A DNA stretch of 64,000 nt from Escherichia coli (GCF_003790525.1 NZ_CP033635.1), one strand, 5' to 3'. Numbered from the stretch's first letter, positions 1,926 to 51,674 are shown. A program made the numbers and translations. Notes: generated from the sequence alone by a model not told the origin.

Positions 1926-2954
1926 TTATTTCACCTGTACCACCACAAACTCATCCGGGTCCGGCAACACCATCAGCGGCGCGGACTGCGTCATGGTAAA
2001 TTCACGGGCGGGATCCCCCACCGTCAGCCAGTGTTTCGGATAACGGGAAGAGGCCACCACGCCTTCAGACAACGCCTGTGCATCCTGAATGGCACCGTAA
2101 CAACGGATCCCATCTGCAGCAGTATTCCCCAGGACCAGCGTGCCGTCTGGCAGATAACGTTTTTCGGTACCGTCCTCTGCCACATAAGACGTTTTCGCCA
2201 CCACAATGGCCAGATCACCGTAATACCCTTTGAAAGACACCACCGCCCCCAGGTCTTTCACTGCCGTTTCGAGTTGCGAATTTGAACCGCGACGGGTATC
2301 CAGTTTTTCGCGGAACAGCTTAAAACCATTCAGCAGACGCCAGACGCTACCGTCCATGATGGCAATATTCACAAGGCCGCTGGCCTGGTCGCAGTAGAGG
2401 TCAATATCATGCGCAGGATCGAACGTGTCACGATCGTGCTCAGACCATTTTTTACCACTGGCCTGCGTAATGTTATTCGCCGGCGATCTGCCAAAATCGA
2501 CCTCAATTTTCTCGAACTGGTCTCCTTCCATGGTGTATTTGCCATACAGCACGGCATTTACCGCCTGCATTTCTTCCACCTGGACAATCGCGTACTCTTC
2601 CTGTTTGAGGTTATCGGTAATGATACGCAGACGGCGGTAAGCCGGATCGTTCAGTTGAGCCGGATCTTCACCAGGAAGGCGCTCAACCGCCTGCCGGGAA
2701 TTAAATTCGTGTTTCGGCTTGACGTAGCCCGGACGCAACACGCGGGTTTCACCACCACGATGACGCAGCACTTTTCCTTCAACAACCGGGGAGACATAGG
2801 CCGCCACCGGCGTTTTTCCGGTAATTTTGTCCAGCATCACCTCTTCGGTATGGAAATTCACCGTACGACGGAAAAACAGCTCCAGAAACAGCGCACGAAA
2901 TTTCACTTTTTGTTCGGTATAACCGAGTAACTGGCGGGTCGTAAACAATCCCAT
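1926..2954 (-). CDS. E: Phage major capsid protein E
   Basis: 342 aa; motifs LRPGYVKPKHEFN, IVQVEEMQAVNAVLYGKYTM, LDTRRGSNSQLETAVKDLG, DPAREFTMTQSAPLM match lambda gpE from memory. Confidence 0.9.
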   Translation of the reverse strand: MGLFTTRQLLGYTEQKVKFRALFLELFFRRTVNFHTEEVMLDKITGKTPVAAYVSPVVEGKVLRHRGGETRVLRPGYVKPKHEFNSRQAVERLPGEDPAQLNDPAYRRLRIITDNLKQEEYAIVQVEEMQAVNAVLYGKYTMEGDQFEKIEVDFGRSPANNITQASGKKWSEHDRDTFDPAHDIDLYCDQASGLVNIAIMDGSVWRLLNGFKLFREKLDTRRGSNSQLETAVKDLGAVVSFKGYYGDLAIVVAKTSYVAEDGTEKRYLPDGTLVLGNTAADGIRCYGAIQDAQALSEGVVASSRYPKHWLTVGDPAREFTMTQSAPLMVLPDPDEFVVVQVK

Positions 2955-3011
2955 AAATCAGTTCCTTTCATTCTGAAATCAGTCAGGCCACCGCGGTGGC
3001 CTGATAACGTG

Positions 3012-3359
3012 TTACGGCAGCGCCGCGTGACTCAGGACACTGCCGGCAAAGGCGTTGGCCTTTTTGTGTTCATCCACACTGTCAGGCCAGCGGATTGCCT
3101 CCGTCGCAAAAGTCCCCGACTTGTAATACGTCAGCACCGTCTCTGTGCCTTCAAGCGGCAGTACCAGTATGCCAACCGCACCTCCGGCTTTCTGTCCGTC
3201 CCAGACCACCAGTTTCCCGGTGGCTTCATCCAGCATCAGGGGCGTCAGTGCCGGTGTTGCCGAGGAAATCCCGCTGCTGCCTGTGGCGGTGTGAGCCGGA
3301 TCATTACCGGCAAAAATACGTACTTCCGCACGCTGTTCAGTGATGGTTTTCGTTACCAT
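3012..3359 (-). CDS. D: Phage head decoration protein D
   Basis: 115 aa; NDPAHTAT...TPLMLD...KLVVWDG...AVGIL...YKSGTF resembles lambda gpD; located between C and E. Confidence 0.8.
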   Translation of the reverse strand: MVTKTITEQRAEVRIFAGNDPAHTATGSSGISSATPALTPLMLDEATGKLVVWDGQKAGGAVGILVLPLEGTETVLTYYKSGTFATEAIRWPDSVDEHKKANAFAGSVLSHAALP

Positions 3360-3395
3360 ATTGTCAAAACCTCATATTGATGGTCAGCACTGACT

Positions 3396-4901
3396 TCATG
3401 GCATGGCCATGAGCATTTTCACGTCCGCATCACCGTCTGCTGACGTCTGTGGCACGCCACCCTGTACCGCTGCCGGTGAATGGTTCGCCATGAAATGTTC
3501 AAACATGGCGGTTGTGGATGCAGAGACCGGTTCTGCCTTACCTGATCCCGCAGCCAGCACAGCCCGGGCGTTCTCCACGGTCATTCCCGGGCAGGCAGCC
3601 AGCTGTTCAGCCTGCGCCTCAGCCCCTTTTGCCTCATCCAGGGCCATGATCTGATCACGGAGTGATGGTCCGGCATCCGCCTGCGGTGAAGCTGCCAGGA
3701 TCGGGCGGGCTTTTTCCACCGTCATCTCCGGCATCGCCGCCAGCGTTGCCGCCAGTTGTTCACGACCTTTCGCCTCTTCACACGCCATAATGCGATCGGC
3801 TTCACTCTGCGCGGATGCCACCGGCTGCTGTGGTGCCGCCGCGGCCAGGATCTCCCGGGCCTGTTCAACGCTCATGCCCTGTTGTCCCGCCAGCATCGTG
3901 GCAAGCTGTTCACGTCCTTTCGCTTCCTTACTCGTCAGGATCCCCATCACTCGCTGGTTCTCCTGCGCGGCGGCTTCCGTTGCAGTTAATTGCGGCATAG
4001 TGCCTCCTGTATCATGTGTGTACAGCGCCGTGGTCATCACACTGATGGCATCCGACGCATTGACTAATTCATCCGCCAGCCCGGCCTCAATGCCGGACTG
4101 ACCTTCAAAAACGGCGGCCTCTGTTCCCGTGACCACATCCACAGACAGCCCGGTATACATCGCCACTTTTTCGGCAAACATCCGGTGTGCCGCATCAATG
4201 CGCTGCTGCATGTCCTGACGCACCTCTTCCGGTAAGGCTTCAAACTGATTGCCATCCACCTTGTGCGCCCCGGCATAAATCAGCGTGATATCCACACCGG
4301 CCTGCGCCAGATGACCGGCATAGCTGAGATGGCTCATCATCACGCCAATGGAGCCGATACGGGATGTCTGGGTAACCAGCCGTCGGGAGCAGGCCGACGC
4401 CAGCAGCATGGCTGCAGAACAGGCCGTGTCATTGCACAGTGCCCAGACCGGCTTCTGCTGACGGAGGCGGTAAATCATGTCAGCACAGTCAAACGCGCCT
4501 GCGGCCTGCCCGCCCGGACTGTCAATGTCCAGCAGTACGCCCCGGACAGCGGTGTCCGCCATTGCCTGCTGAAGACAGGCGACAATGCCGTCATAGCCTG
4601 TCATTCCGGAAAATGGCCGCATACCACCCAGCCGGTGCACCAGCATGCCGGTCACCGGCAGTACAGCAATACCGTTCACCACCCGGTAAACACGGGCCGG
4701 TCGTTTACCTCCGGCCATGTACTCGTCCGTTTCAGCCAGCATTCCGGGAGCATCAAGCTGTACCTGCTGTTGTGGTACCGAAAGACTTGCTGCCCCCATC
4801 TCGCGCCCGAGCGCGCAAAAGAAAACCCGCGCATAGGCGGGCTCCAGAAGCAGCGGTTCATTGAATGCTGCGGCAATAATGTGTGAAAGATTACGTCTCA
4901 C
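3396..4901 (-). CDS. C: Phage head maturation protease/scaffold (gpC-like S49/ClpP-family peptidase with Nu3-like repeat-rich C-terminus)
   Basis: 501 aa; N-terminal serine peptidase-like region (LLDIDSPGG, CNDTACSAAMLLA); C-terminal third carries three imperfect ~35-aa repeats (EAKGREQLA...M(S/T)VE.AR.ILAA); between B and D as in lambda. Confidence 0.8.
   Translation of the reverse strand: MRRNLSHIIAAAFNEPLLLEPAYARVFFCALGREMGAASLSVPQQQVQLDAPGMLAETDEYMAGGKRPARVYRVVNGIAVLPVTGMLVHRLGGMRPFSGMTGYDGIVACLQQAMADTAVRGVLLDIDSPGGQAAGAFDCADMIYRLRQQKPVWALCNDTACSAAMLLASACSRRLVTQTSRIGSIGVMMSHLSYAGHLAQAGVDITLIYAGAHKVDGNQFEALPEEVRQDMQQRIDAAHRMFAEKVAMYTGLSVDVVTGTEAAVFEGQSGIEAGLADELVNASDAISVMTTALYTHDTGGTMPQLTATEAAAQENQRVMGILTSKEAKGREQLATMLAGQQGMSVEQAREILAAAAPQQPVASAQSEADRIMACEEAKGREQLAATLAAMPEMTVEKARPILAASPQADAGPSLRDQIMALDEAKGAEAQAEQLAACPGMTVENARAVLAAGSGKAEPVSASTTAMFEHFMANHSPAAVQGGVPQTSADGDADVKMLMAMP
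3644..3989. repeat. Imperfect ~105-bp tandem repeats (about 3 copies) inside the C/Nu3-like gene
   Basis: Recurring DNA blocks such as ccgccagttgttcacgacctttcgcctcttcacacgccat / gcaagctgttcacgtcctttcgcttccttactcgtcag; they encode the repeated EAKGREQL...ILAA protein motif. Confidence 0.6.
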
Positions 4902-6483
4902 GTGGTGTTGTCTCCTCTTCCGGCCTGCGACTCGCCGCTATCTGCTGCTGATACGCCTGCGCTATCCACACCGGACGTGAGAGTCCGGCTTTTTCCCGCT
5001 CTGCAGATTCCCTGACCTGCTGGCGGAAAATGTCCTGATAATCCTCACCCATCAGCGCCAGCTCTTTCTCATACGTGCTCAGTCCGGCCTCAATGCGCAT
5101 CACCGATTCCTGGACCTCCTTGAGCCCGTCAATGGCCATTCTTCCGGCTCCAATCCACTCTGCCCGTGACCAGGATGAACGCGCCTGATAAAAATCAAAA
5201 CGCGCCCGTGGCGGACGAATAATCCCCCGCAGAAGAGCCTCTTCCAGCCAGCAGGAAAACATCTGCGTGGCCAGCCGGGCCGCAATAAATTTTCGCCGCC
5301 CCATAAAATAGCGCCACGACTCATTGGCGGAGGCGCGGGCACTTGAATAACTGACCTTCGAGTAATCACGGGACAACTGTTCGTAGGAAACGCCAAGACC
5401 GGCGGCGATATACCGCAGCAGCGCCTGTTCAAGCGCAGAAAATCCATTGTCTGAATCCTGCGCAGTCTGTAGTTTCAGATCATCACCGGGGAAAAGGTGC
5501 GGAATTTTGACACCGCCCAGTGTCACGTTATTCGTGTCATACCAGCTGGAGAACTTCTCCAGAATATTAATAAGCGGATTATCCTTCTGCCCCTGCGGCG
5601 CACCGGCGATATATTCAAAGGCCTTTTCGGTATCAAGTTCACTTTCAATCGTCGCTGCATACATCGCCTTCACTATGGCTGACTGAAGCTGTGTTGCCTG
5701 CAGGGAATCGAGCATTTTCAGCCGTTCCATGACGCTGTAAAACTGATTAGCCCCACGGGTCTGCCCGTCCTCAACCGGCTCGAAAATATGCAGCATGGCC
5801 GGACGCCCGGTGGGAAGTTCACGCGGGATCCGTTCCCATCGTCCACTACCAGAGAGCGGAAAATCATCCTCACAGATATGGTACGCAACGGCCCGTCCAT
5901 GCCGATCGACCTCCACCCCGGCCCGCAGAAAGCGGTTCCCCAAACCGTATCCTGGCGTGTCCACCCGTTTCGGACTCACGGCTTTAAAACGCGTACGAAA
6001 CAGCTGCGTAGTCTCCGCATCCCAGACCGGCTGCACAAAGATTTCGCCGTTAAACGCATGAACGCCCACGCCTTCCCGGATAAATTCCGTGAACGTGCGT
6101 TTTCCTTCCACGTCGATCTCGCCAGACATCCCTTCGGCGTATTCCGACCAGGCCGCCTCCACCTCATCGACAAAGCTTTTTGCTGCGGTCTCCCGCATCC
6201 CCAGCCAGCGCCAGTTCGGACGGTAGCTGATCAGAAACATATGCCCGACTATGTGATCCTTATGCAGGGCCACCGCATTAGCCGCTATTCCGTTATTGCG
6301 CACCAGATCATCTGCCCGGGCATTCCCCAGACGCAACGCGGGGAGCAGGGCCGCATCGACACTCTGCGCCGGTGGCAACCACTCCGCCATTTGCCCGCCA
6401 AATCCTGCGCCGCCCCCGTTGTAGCTGAGACTCTCACGAAGCGGAACGCCGTTCACATCAATCAGGACAGGCGTTCTTTTCAT
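4891..6483 (-). CDS. B: Phage portal protein B
   Basis: 530 aa; size, position (between W and C) and sequence consistent with lambda gpB portal. Confidence 0.9.
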   Translation of the reverse strand: MKRTPVLIDVNGVPLRESLSYNGGGAGFGGQMAEWLPPAQSVDAALLPALRLGNARADDLVRNNGIAANAVALHKDHIVGHMFLISYRPNWRWLGMRETAAKSFVDEVEAAWSEYAEGMSGEIDVEGKRTFTEFIREGVGVHAFNGEIFVQPVWDAETTQLFRTRFKAVSPKRVDTPGYGLGNRFLRAGVEVDRHGRAVAYHICEDDFPLSGSGRWERIPRELPTGRPAMLHIFEPVEDGQTRGANQFYSVMERLKMLDSLQATQLQSAIVKAMYAATIESELDTEKAFEYIAGAPQGQKDNPLINILEKFSSWYDTNNVTLGGVKIPHLFPGDDLKLQTAQDSDNGFSALEQALLRYIAAGLGVSYEQLSRDYSKVSYSSARASANESWRYFMGRRKFIAARLATQMFSCWLEEALLRGIIRPPRARFDFYQARSSWSRAEWIGAGRMAIDGLKEVQESVMRIEAGLSTYEKELALMGEDYQDIFRQQVRESAEREKAGLSRPVWIAQAYQQQIAASRRPEEETTPRET

Positions 6484-6686
6484 AACCTCACTCCCAGCGG
6501 ACGACGGCGACGTCGGGTTGTCCCCAGTACCGACTCCGCATCATTGATCGCCCGGTTAAGCTCATCCAGAGAAGCCGCCGTATATTCAATTCTGCGACCA
6601 TCTTTCTGGACAGACACCACCCGTTTACCGGTTAATAAATCAAGGCGCGCCTGACGCAGCGCCTGCAGTTCAGCGACTGTAACCAT
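6480..6686 (-). CDS. W: Phage head-tail joining protein W
   Basis: 68 aa MVTVAELQALRQARLDLLTGKRVVSVQKDGRRIEYTAASLDELNRAINDAESVLG..., lambda gpW-like; 4-nt overlap with B. Confidence 0.85.
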   Translation of the reverse strand: MVTVAELQALRQARLDLLTGKRVVSVQKDGRRIEYTAASLDELNRAINDAESVLGTTRRRRRPLGVRL

Positions 6687-8598
6687 TCACTCCTCCGGAC
6701 AGCTTCGCTGCCAGTTCTTTAAGGGTTGGCCGGGTCGTCTCTTCTTCCCGGGATTTTGCCAGTACAGCCAGATCAAGCTGCCAGCGTTGCACGGACACAC
6801 GTAATGCCGCGTAGGCATACACCAGGCAGTCCAGCGCTTCGTTACGCCGCTTTTTGTTATCCCACAGCAGACGCATCTTTCCTTTTTCCCACTTCTCCAC
6901 AAGCTCTTCCGCGACCAGTTGCTGCGCCTCTGTCTGCGAAAAAATCTCCGGATCATCAGGAAAACGAATGGCATACGACGTGGATTCATCCGCAGGCGTG
7001 GGAGCGGCTTTCATACGGGCATAGAGAATTTCTTTTGCGGTGTCCGTGCCCACTTCACACAGATACACGCCCCGCTGATTGCGGGTTTTTGGCATGGTGA
7101 TCACCGGCTTGCCATAGACAGATGCGCCTTTTACCGGCAACACCCGGAAAACACCGTGTTTTTTTGACCTCTGATAAACGATTTCTCCATCGATCCCCCC
7201 GATGTCCCAGCAGACACGGGAAATGGTCATTTCGGTTCCGTCTGCATGGCGGTATTTTTTGTTGATCGCCGCATCCACACGTAACAGCGTCTCTTCCTCA
7301 TCGGGACGTCCCATAATGATGATTTTATCCACCAGAAAGGCTTCCTCTCCCGGAGCCCATCCCCAGACATACATCTCAAAACGGTTTCGCTGCGAGTCAA
7401 TGCCCGCCGTCAGATAAACCACCCGGGCAGGCACCGCCGCCGTGTAACGCACAACCTTATCCATCAGTACCTGGTGATCGAGTTTTTCGCCCACGGCCTC
7501 TTCCCAGGTCTCGCCCAGCGTGGTGTTCACAAAGGTTTTCAGGCCGTTGGGATCTTTCAGTGCATCCAGCCAGTCATAGACAATCTGTACCCAGGTGGTG
7601 AACGGACTGTACGCCGTCCAGATATGGAAAGTGATGGAGCGCGGCGGCGGAATTTCATTATCCGCGGCGCTGAAAAACATCAGGCCGTCACGGGTCCACA
7701 TGCCCGTGTTTTCACAGATCCACCGCCCGTTACTCTGGTCAAGCTCAGACTGATGGATCACACAGCCATGATGCTCACAAAGGTAGAAAACGCTTTCGGG
7801 GCTGTCCTTCTCCCATTTAAGGCCAAAAGGCGTGGATTCATCGCCAAATTTCAGATACTGCTCCTCCCCACAGTGCGGGCAGGGCACATAAAAACGCATG
7901 AAATGTGCCGACTCGTTAGCGGCTTTTTCGATCTGGCAGGAGCCTTTGATTTTAGGCGTCGAGCCGCGAATGGATTTTGGCCATACAGAGCCCTCAATAC
8001 GCTTATCCCCCAGCAGGGTTGGCGAGCCCTCTTTTTCAACATCCGGTTCGAACGAGGAAAGCTCGTCATAGCAGACCACGTCCACGGATTTTTCACGGTA
8101 GTTTTTTGCTGCCGCACCACCCAGGCACCAGAAGCCCACACCCGATGAAAAGCGTTTCAGCGTGAGAGTATTGTCACGATGTTTACGCCCCAGCCATGGA
8201 GAAAGGTCTTTCAGGCATGGCACATCCCGAATCGTCGCCTCCACGTGAGACTTCATAAAATCTTCAGCGGCAGAATCCGTGGGCTGAAAAAGCAGACTGT
8301 TTCGGGATTTATGCTCAATAAAATACCCGACCACCCCCAGCAACATCTTTGTATAACCAATACGGGCAGATTTAATCAGGTTAACAGTGCGAATCAGATC
8401 GTTGCCCATACAGTTCATGATGGCGATCTGGAACGGCAGCGTTTTCCATTCTCCCTCACCATATGAAGATTCTTTAGGCAGATAATAATTTTGATCAGCC
8501 CATTCAACTGGCGTCACCGGCAATGCCCTTATCAGGGGCTGTAATGCTGTTGTGACAGCACTCATCATATTATTCAGTTGTTGCTCTGATATATTCAT
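6670..8598 (-). CDS. A: Terminase large subunit A
   Basis: Long ORF with lambda gpA blocks (WADQNYYLPKESSYGEGEWKTLPFQ, KRFSSGVGFWCLGGAAAKNYREKSVDV, FMRFYVPCPHCGEEQYLKFGD, FHIWTAYSPFTTWVQIV); start placed at MNISEQQ (ORF track start 8655 is upstream in frame). Confidence 0.9.
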   Translation of the reverse strand: MNISEQQLNNMMSAVTTALQPLIRALPVTPVEWADQNYYLPKESSYGEGEWKTLPFQIAIMNCMGNDLIRTVNLIKSARIGYTKMLLGVVGYFIEHKSRNSLLFQPTDSAAEDFMKSHVEATIRDVPCLKDLSPWLGRKHRDNTLTLKRFSSGVGFWCLGGAAAKNYREKSVDVVCYDELSSFEPDVEKEGSPTLLGDKRIEGSVWPKSIRGSTPKIKGSCQIEKAANESAHFMRFYVPCPHCGEEQYLKFGDESTPFGLKWEKDSPESVFYLCEHHGCVIHQSELDQSNGRWICENTGMWTRDGLMFFSAADNEIPPPRSITFHIWTAYSPFTTWVQIVYDWLDALKDPNGLKTFVNTTLGETWEEAVGEKLDHQVLMDKVVRYTAAVPARVVYLTAGIDSQRNRFEMYVWGWAPGEEAFLVDKIIIMGRPDEEETLLRVDAAINKKYRHADGTEMTISRVCWDIGGIDGEIVYQRSKKHGVFRVLPVKGASVYGKPVITMPKTRNQRGVYLCEVGTDTAKEILYARMKAAPTPADESTSYAIRFPDDPEIFSQTEAQQLVAEELVEKWEKGKMRLLWDNKKRRNEALDCLVYAYAALRVSVQRWQLDLAVLAKSREEETTRPTLKELAAKLSGGVNGYSR

Positions 8599-9079
8599 CG
8601 AGTAAATCCGGTAATTTATCCCCTGCCCGCGCACACTGATTTGCCCCCTTCGCAATAAGGGTTTTCAGATGGTCAAGATGGCGCGGTGTTAAATCAGGAA
8701 ACTGTCGTTGCATGGATAAAGGGATGGAATCAAGCGTACTGGATAACGCCATTGCCAGCTTGCTGAGGGCAAAAATACAGAACCCGGTGTCAATAAGTTT
8801 TCCTTTTGACACCTCATTTTTTAACTGCTGTGTAACAGCCTGTTCTGCTGTCAGTTCCCATCTGGCAATAAGCAATTTCTCCTCATAGTCGTCTTCGCTA
8901 TCGCCATCAGGCACATCGTTTTTACTTCTTCTCAGATACGATATGTAAAAATCACGCCAGGCATCCAGATCCAGTTGCCCTCGCTTATTCGATATCGGGG
9001 CACCCGGCAATTTCTGCAGTCTGCGAAGCTGGCGATCGGTCAGACTCAAATGCCTGGCAACTTCAGTCTGCGTAGCCAC
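8570..9079 (-). CDS. Nu1: Terminase small subunit (Nu1-like)
   Basis: 169 aa; N-terminal HTH-like MATQTEVARHLSLTDRQLRRLQKLPG; immediately between cos and A; C-terminal region resembles lambda Nu1. Confidence 0.8.
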   Translation of the reverse strand: MATQTEVARHLSLTDRQLRRLQKLPGAPISNKRGQLDLDAWRDFYISYLRRSKNDVPDGDSEDDYEEKLLIARWELTAEQAVTQQLKNEVSKGKLIDTGFCIFALSKLAMALSSTLDSIPLSMQRQFPDLTPRHLDHLKTLIAKGANQCARAGDKLPDLLDEYIRATTE

Positions 9080-9149
9080 TGTTCACCTCGCAAAAAATCT
9101 CCCCTCATGCGTTTTAAACATGCATCTTGCGAGCAACTTTATGCAAACG

Positions 9150-9330
9150 CACGCATATGTCCGGTTTGTTTGTACATTTTTTGCACATGTCCGGTTCGCA
9201 GAAAGCATGTTTTTATATTTTTCATATAGTTAACTTGCAGAGAAACCGGACATGGATCCCGGAAAATTTTCATAAATAGCGAAAACGCGCGAGGTCGACG
9301 CCCCGTAACGGGTCCACATGCCGGAAAGGA
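9150..9330 (-). other. cos packaging site (cosN around 9292..9304 plus cosB-like repeat sites toward Nu1)
   Basis: Reverse complement of 9255..9305 reads GGGGCGTCGACCTCGCGCGTTTTCGCTATTTATGAAAATTTTCCGG, almost identical to the lambda cos sequence as remembered (GGGCGGCGACCTCGCGGGTTTTCGCTATTTATGAAAATTTTCCGG); three copies of ATGTCCGGTT (9154..9167, 9184..9198, inverted at 9244..9255) sit between cosN and the Nu1 start like lambda R sites. Confidence 0.65.
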
Positions 9331-9502
9331 CCCGCAAAATGATAATAATTATCATCTACATGTCACAACGTGCATCTACGCCATCAAACCACGTCAAATA
9401 ATAAATTATGACGCAGGTATCGTATTAATTGATCTGCATCAACTTAACGTAAAAACAACTTCAGACAATACAAATCAGCGACACTGAATACGGGGCAACC
9501 TC

Positions 9503-9697
9503 ATGTCAACGAAGAACAGAACCCGCAGAACAACAACCCGCAACATCCGCTTTCCTAACCAAATGATTGAACAAATTAACATCGCTCTTGAGCAAAAAGG
9601 GTCCGGGAATTTCTCAGCCTGGGTCATTGAAGCCTGCCGTCGGAGACTAACGTCAGAAAAGAGAGCATATACATCAATCCAAAGAGATGATGAATAA
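9503..9697 (+). CDS. Small basic hypothetical protein, possible ribbon-helix-helix DNA-binding protein
   Basis: 64 aa ORF between cos and bor; arginine-rich N-terminus then IRFPNQMIEQINIALEQKG, reminiscent of RHH folds. No stronger evidence. Confidence 0.3.
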   Translation: MSTKNRTRRTTTRNIRFPNQMIEQINIALEQKGSGNFSAWVIEACRRRLTSEKRAYTSIQRDDE

Positions 9698-12719: not shown

Positions 12720-12796
12720 TGGACCGCCACCGGGGACTCGAACCCCGCACAGTCAGCTTAGAAGGCTGATGCTCTCTCCTGATGAGCTAGTAGCGG
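12720..12796 (-). tRNA. argN: tRNA-Arg (anticodon UCU)
   Basis: Minus-strand read CCGCTAC..CTCATCAGGAGAG..CAGCCTTCTAAGCTG..GGGGTTCGAGTCCCCGGTGGCGGTCCA: 7-bp acceptor (one G-U), anticodon loop with UCU, T-loop TTCGAGT, encoded CCA. Confidence 0.8.
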
Positions 12797-12797
12797 T

Positions 12798-12873
12798 TGG
12801 TGGCCCTTGCTGAATTTGAACCAGCGCCCTTGCGATTATGAGTCGCTCGCTCTCACCACTGAGCTAAAGGGCC
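12798..12873 (-). tRNA. ileZ: tRNA with CAU anticodon (Ile2-lysidine type or Met)
   Basis: Minus-strand read GGCCCTTTAGCTCAGTGGTGAGAGCGAGCGACTCATAATCGCAAGGGCGCTGGTTCAAATTCAGCAAGGGCCACCA: canonical cloverleaf, anticodon CAT, encoded CCA; resembles the ileX/ileY-type tRNA carried by lambdoid phages. Confidence 0.8.
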
Positions 12874-35657: not shown

Positions 35658-35692
35658 ATAAAAAAAGGCCCCTGTTGAAATTGCAGGGGCCT
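35658..35692 (-). terminator. Rho-independent terminator downstream of cutC
   Basis: AGGCCCCTG..CAGGGGCCT hairpin with an A-run on the plus strand (T-run on minus). Confidence 0.5.
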
Positions 35693-35738
35693 GGTACGAG
35701 CAAGCATCATATTGGGCGACATGATGCAACGGTAAAAA

Positions 35739-36494
<756 letters not shown>

Positions 36495-39014: not shown

Positions 39015-39028
39015 TCGCGTTATACGGC

Positions 39029-39064
39029 AAAAGCCGATGTCATGGCAGACATCGGCTTTTTTAT
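39029..39064 (+). terminator. Rho-independent terminator after argS
   Basis: GCCGATGTC..GACATCGGC hairpin followed by TTTTTTAT. Confidence 0.6.
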
Positions 39065-39066
39065 CA

Positions 39067-39462
39067 TTAACGATAATTCACAATCACTTCATTCCGTTGT
39101 ACCTTTAGCGGCGGAATTAACCGCCCACCGCCAGGCACTTCCCAGATAAAGCGCAACGGTTCTGCCGCCGGTATACCGGAAAAGGCCACGGTGGTTCCGC
39201 TCTGCCCCTCTAATTCGACACAACGAGATTGTGAACACAAGCGAACCCGCAGCCCTACGGGAGTTGGGCCGATAAGCTGATAACGCCACGCCACCAGCGT
39301 CATCAATCCTGAAGCAGGTTGTCGAGTAGAAAGAGGCGCTGACGACATCGACTCACCACGGTGATTCAGCGTAACGCCCACACTACTCGCCTGCCACATC
39401 CCCTCTCCGGCGGCTTGCACCAGCAGCGGAAACAATAATATTGCTAATAAGGTTCTCATCAT
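39067..39462 (-). CDS. flhE: Flagellar protein FlhE
   Basis: 131 aa with signal peptide; last gene of flhBAE; 4-nt overlap with flhA. Confidence 0.85.
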   Translation of the reverse strand: MMRTLLAILLFPLLVQAAGEGMWQASSVGVTLNHRGESMSSAPLSTRQPASGLMTLVAWRYQLIGPTPVGLRVRLCSQSRCVELEGQSGTTVAFSGIPAAEPLRFIWEVPGGGRLIPPLKVQRNEVIVNYR

Positions 39463-42678: not shown

Positions 42679-42914
42679 GTCGCCAATCCTGGAAAGAGTA
42701 TTAAGCGTAAATGATGCCAGATCGCAAAGCGTTCAATGGTTTGAGTAAGGGGCAAAACAGGCGGGATTTAGGGCGTTTATGCAAAAAACAGGTTCAGTTG
42801 CAGAACGTTTTGCGAACCATTTTCCAGTTCTGATATTTAGCCATTTAGCCTATAGAATCGCCCACCGCCTCTCTGTTAGTTTGCTAATAATTAAATTATT
42901 ACAAAGGCGATCAA

Positions 42915-44423
42915 ATGGAATGGCAACAATTGCTTAACTGCAACCGTCGGAAAGATAATCTAAAAAAAACCAGCATAGAATTTTTACATCCCCTTGCTAG
43001 CGGAAGACAAGAGATCGAGCGGGATTACGACCGATTACTTTTTGCTGCGCCAACTCGTCGGCTTGCGGATAAAACACAAGTTTTCCCGTTAGATCAAAAT
43101 GACAGTATACGGACGAGGCTGACTCATTCTCACGAAGTAGCAAACTTTGCTCGCGGAATAGGAATGAGACTCGCTTTCGAGATGAAGGAACACATCTTTG
43201 GCGAAATACCCACGGGGATTGTCGTTGAACGCGACGTTCCTGCTCTGTTAGCAGCGATCGGACTGGCACACGATCTCGGTAATCCACCATTTGGGCATCA
43301 AGGTGAAGCAGCGATGCGCGCATGGTTTAATAAAAATCTTCCAGGCCTTCTTGATAAAGAAGTAAACAGCGAAATATATAACGACTTTCTGCAATTTGAT
43401 GGAAACTCACAAACCCTACGCCTGGTTACCAAATTACAAATTATTAACGATAACTTTGGTCTGAATCTGACCTATGCCACGCTGGCTGCACTGATCAAAT
43501 ATCCCCGAGCTTCATATTCATCGGACAAACATTGGAAAAAGCACGGTTTTTTCTATTCTGAGCATGAGGTTGTCATGGATGTCTGGCAGCAAACGGGCCT
43601 TGGCGTACCAGGTAATGATGCCGGTTGCCGCCACCCATTTACCTGGATAATGGAAGCTTGCGACGATATTGCCTACTCTGTGCTTGACGCAGAAGATACC
43701 ATCAAGAAAGGATTTGCCTCATACCAGGATTTGCGTGATTTTTTGATGTCACAATCCGAGCCGAACGATGTAATTCAACATGTTATTGAAGCTGTAGAGG
43801 CCAAAAATGACGCCTGGAAAGAGCAAAGAAATGCACTTTCACCGGCGGAAATTAATGAACTCAGTATGCAAATGTTCAGAGTTTATGCCACCAGTGCATT
43901 GATTAATGCCGTAGTAGAAGCCTTTCGCGAACAATTACCCACGCTGATGCAGCGTGACTGCCCGTTCAAAGATTTAATCTCGCAAAGCAAAGGTCACGCT
44001 CTCTGCACTGCCCTGAAAATGTTCGACCGAACACGAGGCTACCTTCATCGTTCAGTCTTGCAACTGGAACTTAGGGGATCTAATTACATTACTAACTTGA
44101 TGGATATGCTCTGGATTGGCATCCATGGACACAAAACAAAGAAACAACGAGACGGAGAACGCGAGTCCGCGTCTGCAGATAACCTTTTTGTTTCTCGTGA
44201 AGAATACCTGTCGGATACTCCCTTTGGTCGCTATGCTTACGGGACAATCTCTGAAAATTATCGCCGTGTGTTTGAAGATCCCGCCAATACACTCCCTGCT
44301 CTTTATAAAGAAGCGCAGTTGCTTACCGACGCAATCTCAGGCATGACGGATAGTTATTTAATGCGCCTTCACGATGAGCTAAAATCACTGTATGAATGTG
44401 GTCTCAAACACCCAACAGCTTGA
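42915..44423 (+). CDS. Dgt-family deoxynucleoside triphosphate triphosphohydrolase (dGTPase-like HD-domain protein), accessory paralog
   Basis: 502 aa; dGTPase family motifs in Dgt order: RRLADKTQVFPL, RTRLTHSHEV, GLAHDLGNPPFGH (HD), FTWIMEACDDIAYSVLDAEDTIKKG, ISGMTDSYLMRLHDEL. AT-rich gene on the strand opposite the flanking flagellar/che genes. Confidence 0.8.
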   Translation: MEWQQLLNCNRRKDNLKKTSIEFLHPLASGRQEIERDYDRLLFAAPTRRLADKTQVFPLDQNDSIRTRLTHSHEVANFARGIGMRLAFEMKEHIFGEIPTGIVVERDVPALLAAIGLAHDLGNPPFGHQGEAAMRAWFNKNLPGLLDKEVNSEIYNDFLQFDGNSQTLRLVTKLQIINDNFGLNLTYATLAALIKYPRASYSSDKHWKKHGFFYSEHEVVMDVWQQTGLGVPGNDAGCRHPFTWIMEACDDIAYSVLDAEDTIKKGFASYQDLRDFLMSQSEPNDVIQHVIEAVEAKNDAWKEQRNALSPAEINELSMQMFRVYATSALINAVVEAFREQLPTLMQRDCPFKDLISQSKGHALCTALKMFDRTRGYLHRSVLQLELRGSNYITNLMDMLWIGIHGHKTKKQRDGERESASADNLFVSREEYLSDTPFGRYAYGTISENYRRVFEDPANTLPALYKEAQLLTDAISGMTDSYLMRLHDELKSLYECGLKHPTA

Positions 44424-45144
44424 ACAGCGTATCGCCGATTTTTTTACGCTTAGTGATGAGCATAAGAAAGCCAGAGTATTACTTGATACTCTGGCCTGTT
44501 CCTGTCCGGCCTGGATTTTTGGCGGGATGGTGCGTGACTTAGGCTTGTTTGGCGTCGAGGGATTCTCTTCAGACCTTGATATCGTCATCGGTCGCTCCCG
44601 TGAGGAACTCTTCCGGACATTGGCTGAACTGCCCGTCAAACAACTGCGTTTTAATAAGTTCGGTGGGATCCGTTTTCGTTATCACGACTTCGAATTTGAT
44701 ATCTGGAACCTCAATGAGACATGGGCATTTCGGGAAAAACTTATATTTTGTGAGGATGAATCAAGTCTGTTAAACACTACGCTGATGAGTTGGGATGCCG
44801 TGCTCTATGATCTACGTAGTGAAAAAATTATCAGTAAAGATAATTATTTGACCGACTTAAATCGCAGACATCTTGAACTTGTTCTTCATACTAACCCCAA
44901 TCCAAGCGGTTCGGTAACGAAAATTTTACGCACTATTTTTACTAAGCAGGTAAAGAGTTTAGGTCCGGAACTCTGTCATTTCTTGCACCATGAACTGACG
45001 AAAAAACGTTATGAAGTTTGGCATCATTACGATGTACTGCACTACCAGTCATCGTCATTTTCTCGTTCACAATTTAATGCGTTGATAAATTTACTGGCGC
45101 AACAATCACGCTTCGCTGATCTAAAATTATCAAATTACAAATAA
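44392..45144 (+). CDS. Pol-beta superfamily nucleotidyltransferase (CCA-adding/poly(A)-polymerase-head-like motif), partner of the dGTPase-like gene
   Basis: 250 aa; overlaps upstream gene by 32 nt; N-terminal FGGMVRDLGLFGVEGFSSDLDIVIG matches the GG-x-[VI]RD...DxD nucleotidyltransferase signature; no HD or other known C-terminal domain. Confidence 0.6.
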   Translation: MNVVSNTQQLEQRIADFFTLSDEHKKARVLLDTLACSCPAWIFGGMVRDLGLFGVEGFSSDLDIVIGRSREELFRTLAELPVKQLRFNKFGGIRFRYHDFEFDIWNLNETWAFREKLIFCEDESSLLNTTLMSWDAVLYDLRSEKIISKDNYLTDLNRRHLELVLHTNPNPSGSVTKILRTIFTKQVKSLGPELCHFLHHELTKKRYEVWHHYDVLHYQSSSFSRSQFNALINLLAQQSRFADLKLSNYK

Positions 45145-45189
45145 CCATCCTCCACATACTTCCTGAACGATACCCGCCCCCCTGCTATC

Positions 45190-45212
45190 GGCCTGGCATC
45201 ATCGCGCAGGCC
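45190..45212. terminator. Hairpin between convergent NTase gene and cheZ (possible bidirectional terminator)
   Basis: GGCCTG-gcatcatcgcg-CAGGCC inverted repeat; no clear T-run, so weak. Confidence 0.25.
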
Positions 45213-45231
45213 GAAGTTAAGGCAATACAAA

Positions 45232-51561: not shown

Positions 51562-51588
51562 TTATCGGCAAGGAAGGGGGAAACTTTA
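51562..51588 (-). promoter_or_regulatory. Sigma-28 (FliA) class 3 promoter of the tar-tap-cheRBYZ operon
   Basis: Minus strand reads TAAAGTTT-cccccttcctt-GCCGATAA, an exact match to the sigma-28 consensus TAAAGTTT-N11-GCCGATAA, about 30 bp upstream of the tar start. Confidence 0.7.
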
Positions 51589-51613
51589 TTGCTGATGCCA
51601 CCCGCCGCGAAAT

Positions 51614-51648
51614 TGAAATAAAAAACCCGATGCGCAGATCATCGGGTT
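51614..51648 (-). terminator. Rho-independent terminator after cheW (end of motAB-cheAW operon)
   Basis: Minus strand AACCCGATGATCTGCGCATCGGGTTTTTTATTT. Confidence 0.65.
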
Positions 51649-51674
51649 CATTTCAATTGAGGAAATCGGGAGAA

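Follow-up and report, generated by a model that had tools for sequence, protein, structure and literature searches.

A diverged CloA-CloB operon between flhB and cheZ of Escherichia coli, with a predicted p3diT synthase gene

The flhB-cheZ cassette and its two genes

We analyzed a 64,000-nucleotide stretch of Escherichia coli DNA (GCF_003790525.1, NZ_CP033635.1; hereafter the window) and describe here an open reading frame (ORF) that we identify as cloB, the nucleotidyltransferase (NTase) gene of the two-gene anti-phage system Clover. The gene lies in a low-GC cassette directly downstream of cloA, which encodes a predicted deoxyguanosine triphosphate (dGTP) triphosphohydrolase, or dGTPase. Coordinates are collected in Table 1. 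The gene order is flhA and flhB on the minus strand, cloA and cloB on the plus strand, and then cheZ, cheY, cheB, cheR, tap and tar on the minus strand. Homology to E. coli K-12 ends at position 42778 and restarts at 45220. Between these points the GC content is 0.40-0.47 (0.44 overall), compared with 0.51-0.58 (0.54 overall) in the flanks. Direct or inverted repeats were looked for at the cassette flanks and none were found, and an Rfam scan returned no family inside or adjoining the cassette.

Table 1. Positions of the features discussed, counted in the window unless another stretch is named.
Feature	Position	Strand	Remarks
cloA-cloB cassette	42779..45219	.	2441 bp, low GC, between flhB and cheZ; replaces an 89-bp K-12 spacer resembling repetitive extragenic palindromic (REP) sequence
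Candidate sigma-70-type promoter for cloAB	42830..42858	+	CTGATA-17-TAGAAT, 57 nt 5' of the cloA ATG; weak match from a consensus scan
cloA	42915..44423	+	502 aa; HD domain and C-terminal helical bundle; predicted dTTP-activated, p3diT-inhibited dGTP triphosphohydrolase
Overlap of cloA 3' end and cloB 5' end	44392..44423	+	32 nt, different reading frames
cloB	44392..45144	+	250 aa; Pol-beta-superfamily nucleotidyltransferase, predicted p3diT (pppdTpdT) synthase
NTase motif A region, residues 43-67	44518..44592	+	FGGMVRD...SSDLDIVIG; G44, G45, R48, D49 and catalytic D61, D63; columns invariant or nearly so
Codon of D103, third catalytic carboxylate	44698..44700	+	hDh on strand 100-106 of the model; invariant in 57 sequences
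Cluster shared by E. coli H5 and Atlantibacter	5434-9616 of the H5 locus stretch; 2080-6259 of the Atlantibacter locus stretch		5' of the H5-type Clover operon
Other Rfam matches: MicL small RNA inside cutC, C0465 RNA 5' of tar, two tRNA genes	35660-35967; 51578-51655; 12723-12873	-; +; -	

The cloB ORF opens with an ATG, and no other start codon separates it from an in-frame TAA at 44380-44382. The same coding sequence in E. coli SMS-3-5 is labelled "hypothetical protein" by RefSeq (WP_001103661.1). The queried 2.6 kb is 100% identical to SMS-3-5 and many other strains, and of 5426 complete E. coli genomes, 106 (approximately 2%) carry the cassette. An earlier note on this DNA, made from the sequence alone, had named frameshifting in close relatives as grounds for doubting the gene; all 106 carriers hold a complete cloB with at least 98% identity. 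When cloB is compared with a 98.2%-identical E. coli allele, 12 codon differences are synonymous and one is non-synonymous. Across genera, non-synonymous divergence (pN) is 0.16-0.44 and synonymous divergence (pS) is 0.76-0.85, with synonymous sites saturated. Because of the 12:1 ratio within E. coli, and because pN is well below pS, we conclude that cloB is an intact gene with purifying selection acting on its protein. The CloB family is large, since an exhaustive homologue search gave 1029 cluster representatives at E<=0.001; a word-indexed search gave enterobacterial relatives only, in 52 clusters. Many Shigella flexneri records contain CloB fragments only (53-160 aa), which may reflect cassette decay in a non-motile lineage or breaks in the assemblies.

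The arrangement of the two genes is conserved. An overlap of 32-50 nt joins cloA to cloB in every related locus examined with an intact cloA, which suggests that the genes are translationally coupled. The pair is kept in Enterobacter, Cronobacter, Atlantibacter and metagenomic loci, and two distant CloB homologues on short metagenomic contigs lie directly downstream of CloA-like C-termini. The same flhB-cheZ site is occupied in Enterobacter, Cronobacter and several metagenomic enterobacteria, and across those genera CloB retains approximately 50-73% identity against 77-92% for CheZ and FlhB. In Enterobacter hormaechei (CP056155.1, locus 5365-8753), an IS3-family transposase gene at 6624-7744 splits cloA into pieces of 396 and 87 aa and leaves cloB intact. 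This natural knock-out fits a toxic role for CloA within the pair, as a break in cloA rather than in cloB is expected if loss of CloB alone is lethal.

The stretch of the cassette that precedes cloA (42779-42914) contains blocks kept across genera: TTTTGCG, TTTCCAGTT, TAGAAT and TTTGTTAGC. The candidate promoter falls within a block that is partly conserved upstream of cloA in the other genera, and the number of matches from the promoter and terminator scan of the region is not above chance. The cassette abuts the flhBAE promoter region, since just 100 bp lie between the start of the divergent flhB and the cassette boundary upstream of it at 42778.

Predicted fold and active site of CloB

The NTase signature that the earlier note had quoted, FGGMVRDLGLFGVEGFSSDLDIVIG, corresponds to residues 43-67 of CloB (nucleotides 44518-44592), and its assignment is upheld by conservation. 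In an alignment of 34 enterobacterial homologues, 27 columns are invariant, including G44, G45, R48, D49, S60, D61, D63 and D103. When distant representatives with 24-50% identity are included, giving 57 sequences, the invariant residues are G44, G45, R48, D61, D63, G92, D103, W105, W111 and P169. All three catalytic carboxylates are therefore retained in the larger set.

We modelled CloB with AlphaFold2 and the family alignment, which gave a mean predicted local distance difference test score (pLDDT) of 92 and a predicted template modelling score (pTM) of 0.88. The N-terminal part of the model is a two-helix segment (residues 7-37). It is followed by an alpha/beta NTase core in which strands 40-43, 62-66, 83-87, 93-97 and 100-106 bear the GG motif, the DxD motif and D103. 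The C-terminal part (residues 171-237) is helical. Approximately 200 of the 250 residues superpose on the head and neck of CCA-adding enzymes, and in structure CloB is most similar to class II CCA-adding, A-adding and poly(A) enzymes (for example, PDB 3h37, 4wby, 1miv and 9kma). The model thus presents CloB as an NTase head with a helical neck-like domain. The comparison with a CCA head, made in the earlier note, was right in this respect. The same note had left some 180 C-terminal residues unrecognized and suggested a sensor domain; in the model they form the rest of the head, including D103, and the neck-like domain. The relationship to the head is evident from structure matching, but profile methods detect it only marginally. 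A PDB profile search with the family alignment returned CCA and poly(A) heads at E 0.045, and Pfam PF01743 (PolyA_pol) matches CloB with an i-Evalue of 0.099 and none of the 34 family members at E<=0.001.

CloB shares motif A (GGxVRD ... DxD) and the head-domain fold with the class II CCA and poly(A) family, and differs from the class II CCA enzymes in several ways. At 250 aa it has no tRNA-binding body and tail, whereas CCA-type enzymes are 340-520 aa long. It carries no fused HD domain, and it has the additional two-helix segment at its N-terminus. The product of a validated CloB homologue is a free dinucleotide, while that of a CCA-type enzyme is an extended tRNA. In the CCA family, motif B (RRD) reads the ribose 2'-OH and motif D (EDxxR) serves in base templating. 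A weak hhalign alignment with E. coli Cca (probability 2%, E 0.022) places T129-T130-L131 of CloB opposite RRD, and G173-S-V-T-K177 opposite EDPLR. As a lead only, TTL and GSVTK at these positions would fit a changed, deoxy-thymidine substrate. We also considered other NTase classes. A MenT/AbiEii-like toxin identity was rejected, as was a cGAS/DncV-like nucleotidyltransferase (CD-NTase) of the CBASS type, for which a cGAS/DncV-like fold together with a match to a defence hidden Markov model would be expected; CloB does not show that combination.

Relationship to the Clover system

Clover is a two-gene anti-phage system composed of CloA and CloB (Yamaguchi et al., bioRxiv 2025, PMC12265719). 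CloA is an octameric HD dGTPase that is inactive alone and is specifically activated by thymidine triphosphate (dTTP), the level of which rises in T5-like infection. CloB, a Pol-beta NTase, synthesizes p3diT (pppdTpdT), which binds at the CloA dimer interface beside the dTTP site and suppresses activation; inactivation of CloB renders the operon toxic (PMC12265719). The systems tested were those of Salmonella enterica SA20044414 and E. coli H5 (CloB WP_000982063.1), and a distant CloB from Xanthomonas also yields p3diT (PMC12265719).

The pair in the window has the organization of this operon, an HD dNTPase gene followed on the same strand by an NTase gene. As with the CloB genes of H5 and Salmonella, cloB is downstream of, and overlaps, a CloA-type dGTPase gene. 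The earlier note had paired the NTase with the adjacent Dgt-type HD protein, and this pairing is confirmed as a conserved two-gene operon. The arrangement it called unusual was already known as CloA-CloB of Clover (PMC12265719), and its analogy to a CCA enzyme split into head and HD domain is coincidental, as the HD partner is a dGTP triphosphohydrolase and not a CCA-type phosphohydrolase. It had also proposed tRNA or the dGTPase protein as substrates; by analogy with published Clover, the NTase would instead make the inhibitory dinucleotide.

For comparison, we located the CloA-CloB operon directly in the E. coli H5 genome. BLASTP aligns residues 2-249 of CloB with residues 11-259 of the experimentally validated H5 CloB at 35% identity (E 1e-54). 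The two proteins are collinear over their full length, are similar in size (250 and 276 aa) and have the same DxD...D site, which conforms to the [D/E]h[D/E]...h[D/E]h pattern of CloB active sites. D61 and D63 align with H5 D71 and D73, the residues changed in the published DDAA mutant. In PMC12265719 the catalytic mutant is given as D71A/D73A in the main text and as D61A/D63A in the legend to Fig. 3; the former numbering fits the 276-aa H5-type CloB, and the latter coincides with that of the 250-aa CloB here. The differences between the two proteins are also clear. Identity is low relative to that of the CloA partners (60%), the N-terminal extension of 10 residues is missing from CloB in the window, and the C-terminal tails differ.

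CloA is closely related to the solved Salmonella protein. It matches the chains of the cryoEM octamer (PDB 9p8s-9p8v) at E 5.6e-191 with 67% identity over aligned residues. It also scores 285 bits against TIGR01353 (cut-off 152) and 5.8e-71 against the PADLOC dGTPase model. Positions named in PMC12265719 were transferred from Salmonella numbering onto CloA by alignment. The metal site (H71/H119/D120/D250) and the HE dyad (H128/E131) are all kept. The dTTP activator pocket is identical at nine of nine positions: R49/D63/Q175/K264/S446/N448/A473/T478/Y481, corresponding to Salmonella R47, D61, Q172, K256, S418, N420, A444, T449 and Y452. The p3diT inhibitor pocket is identical at nine of 10, namely R31/R36/D39/R40/F43/N77/N184/Q319/R322 (Salmonella R29, R34, D37, R38, F41, N75, N181, Q311 and R314). 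The sole change is T25 to L27, and every CloA of the flhB-cheZ lineage has L or I at this position. CloA in the window thus resembles published CloA in keeping both pockets. The metal-site, dyad and pocket residues are likewise kept in the H5 and Atlantibacter proteins and in all seven flhB-cheZ lineage CloAs compared, of which the window copy is one.

CloA shares with the single-gene anti-phage dGTPases (Tal et al. 2022; Shewanella SpdGTPase, PDB 9p8w) the depletion of dGTP by an HD triphosphohydrolase. SpdGTPase, however, forms a hexamer that is constitutively active and lacks a partner gene, whereas CloA requires dTTP and is restrained by CloB (PMC12265719). The match of CloA in the window to the NCBIfam model for stand-alone antiphage_dGTPase, NF041026 (182.9 bits), is under the curated cut-off of 400, and that to 9p8w reaches only E 2.5e-24.

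E. coli has two Clover lineages. The copy in the window occupies a fixed chromosomal site between flhB and cheZ, while the H5-type lineage, found in eight of 5426 E. coli genomes, lies in defence or integrative islands: a selC integrase island in E. coli H5 and a site beside a type I restriction-modification/DarTG cluster in Atlantibacter. Upstream of the H5-type operon, both of these loci contain genes for a PfkB kinase fused to a nucleoside deoxyribosyltransferase, a QueC-like 7-cyano-7-deazaguanine synthase, two hypothetical proteins, an Ogg-type glycosylase and a Dam-like methylase. This cluster may be a DNA-modification or defence module that travels with Clover. Elsewhere in the window (39015-39458), yecV and yecT are missing from their K-12 position between argS and flhE, and the argS-flhE gap in SMS-3-5 is approximately 50 bp.

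Proposed mechanism and alternatives

We consider it likely, with a probability of roughly 0.88, that the ORF encodes a working CloB and that this enzyme makes the inhibitory signal for the adjacent CloA. By homology with the Clover systems described from Salmonella and E. coli H5, the D61/D63/D103 site would join two molecules of dTTP to form 5'-triphosphothymidyl-3'5'-thymidine (p3diT). Bound in the dimer-interface pocket of CloA, p3diT would keep the oligomeric dGTPase inactive in uninfected cells. A T5-like phage would raise cellular dTTP, which would then fill the adjacent and mutually exclusive activator site, and activated CloA would hydrolyze dGTP and starve phage DNA replication. CloB would in this way be antitoxin-like and set the threshold of activation. 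A defence phenotype for the cassette is likewise inferred from the published systems. The identity of the product as p3diT is an extrapolation, as identity to the tested H5-type enzyme is just 35-36%; we favor it because the CloA pocket residues that read thymine and phosphate are fully conserved and because the distant Xanthomonas CloB makes p3diT.

The proposed logic has parallels in other systems that use inhibitory nucleotide signals, namely Hailong, in which HalB makes an oligodeoxyadenylate, and Panoptes/MISS, which uses 2'3'-c-di-AMP (as cited in PMC12265719). In all of them a constitutive NTase signal holds an effector off, and infection lifts the inhibition. Clover differs in its NTase lineage, which is CCA-like, in its signal and effector, and in its trigger, dTTP competing at an adjacent site.

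Several observations weigh against the assignment. Besides the low identity to the tested enzyme, scans of CloB with Pfam, NCBIfam, PADLOC v2 and PHROGs gave no significant model, and a Shine-Dalgarno sequence is not obvious in the DNA before the cloB ATG. CloA has a 20-residue insertion in its C-terminal helical bundle, within residues 406-435 (window 44130-44219), and carries substitutions of H263 by Q271 and of Q427 by D455. The last two positions have been implicated in tetramer packing and in a loop of the suppressed state (PMC12265719). Given the insertion and the two substitutions, the oligomeric state and activation threshold of CloA could differ from those of the solved protein. A variable insertion of 9-20 residues occurs at this bundle site in CloAs of the flhB-cheZ lineage other than the Enterobacter one. 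Neither the solved Salmonella CloA nor H5 CloA has it, and it is near the dTTP-site residues S446 and N448 in sequence.

These features bear on two related readings. The flhB-cheZ copy might be a long-resident chromosomal Clover lineage of E. coli, Enterobacter, Cronobacter and relatives whose function has shifted; the shift could be to another signal or activation threshold, to a role in dNTP homeostasis, or to expression tied to the divergent flhBAE promoter region, by which the system would guard motile cells. The fast evolution of CloB and the insertion in CloA prompt this suggestion, which we regard as unlikely. We hold it quite unlikely that the genes form a Clover-like pair in which the signal of the diverged CloB differs in base, length or linkage, or activates the dGTPase as in CBASS. 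The lower conservation of CloB than of CloA relative to their H5 counterparts (35% against 60%), the lineage-wide replacement of T25 and the lineage-specific CloA insertion would all fit such a change, and the intact remainder of the p3diT pocket speaks for the published signal.

It is very improbable that CloB is instead an RNA 3'-end nucleotidyltransferase, CCA/poly(A)-like or MenT/AbiEii-like, that acts on tRNA independently of the neighboring dGTPase. The class II enzymes at the top of the structural matches and the weak PolyA_pol head match (E 0.099) point in this direction; a bona fide CCA-adding enzyme was rejected, as that match is not significant and the body and tail domains are missing, and the gene is kept beside cloA across genera. 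Least credible is that cloB is a spurious or decaying ORF without translation, as its hypothetical label, the unclear Shine-Dalgarno sequence and the pieces in Shigella flexneri assemblies are set against full-length genes in every E. coli carrier, the 12 synonymous changes to one non-synonymous and pN well below pS, invariant catalytic residues and a confidently predicted fold.

The Clover mechanism was published in 2025 and the copy in the window is a diverged member, so the identification of CloB opens no new biological question. Its value is in annotation, for a gene that RefSeq leaves hypothetical and that no significant Pfam, NCBIfam, PHROGs or PADLOC v2 model covers. Automated tools name the locus a lone dGTPase or a housekeeping "dgt" and miss the regulator because there is no model for CloB. 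By analogy with the characterized systems, CloB would be the regulator that lets a cell carry the dGTPase safely, and its recognition would give a mechanism to a cassette that about 2% of complete E. coli genomes contain and that is common in Enterobacter and Cronobacter.
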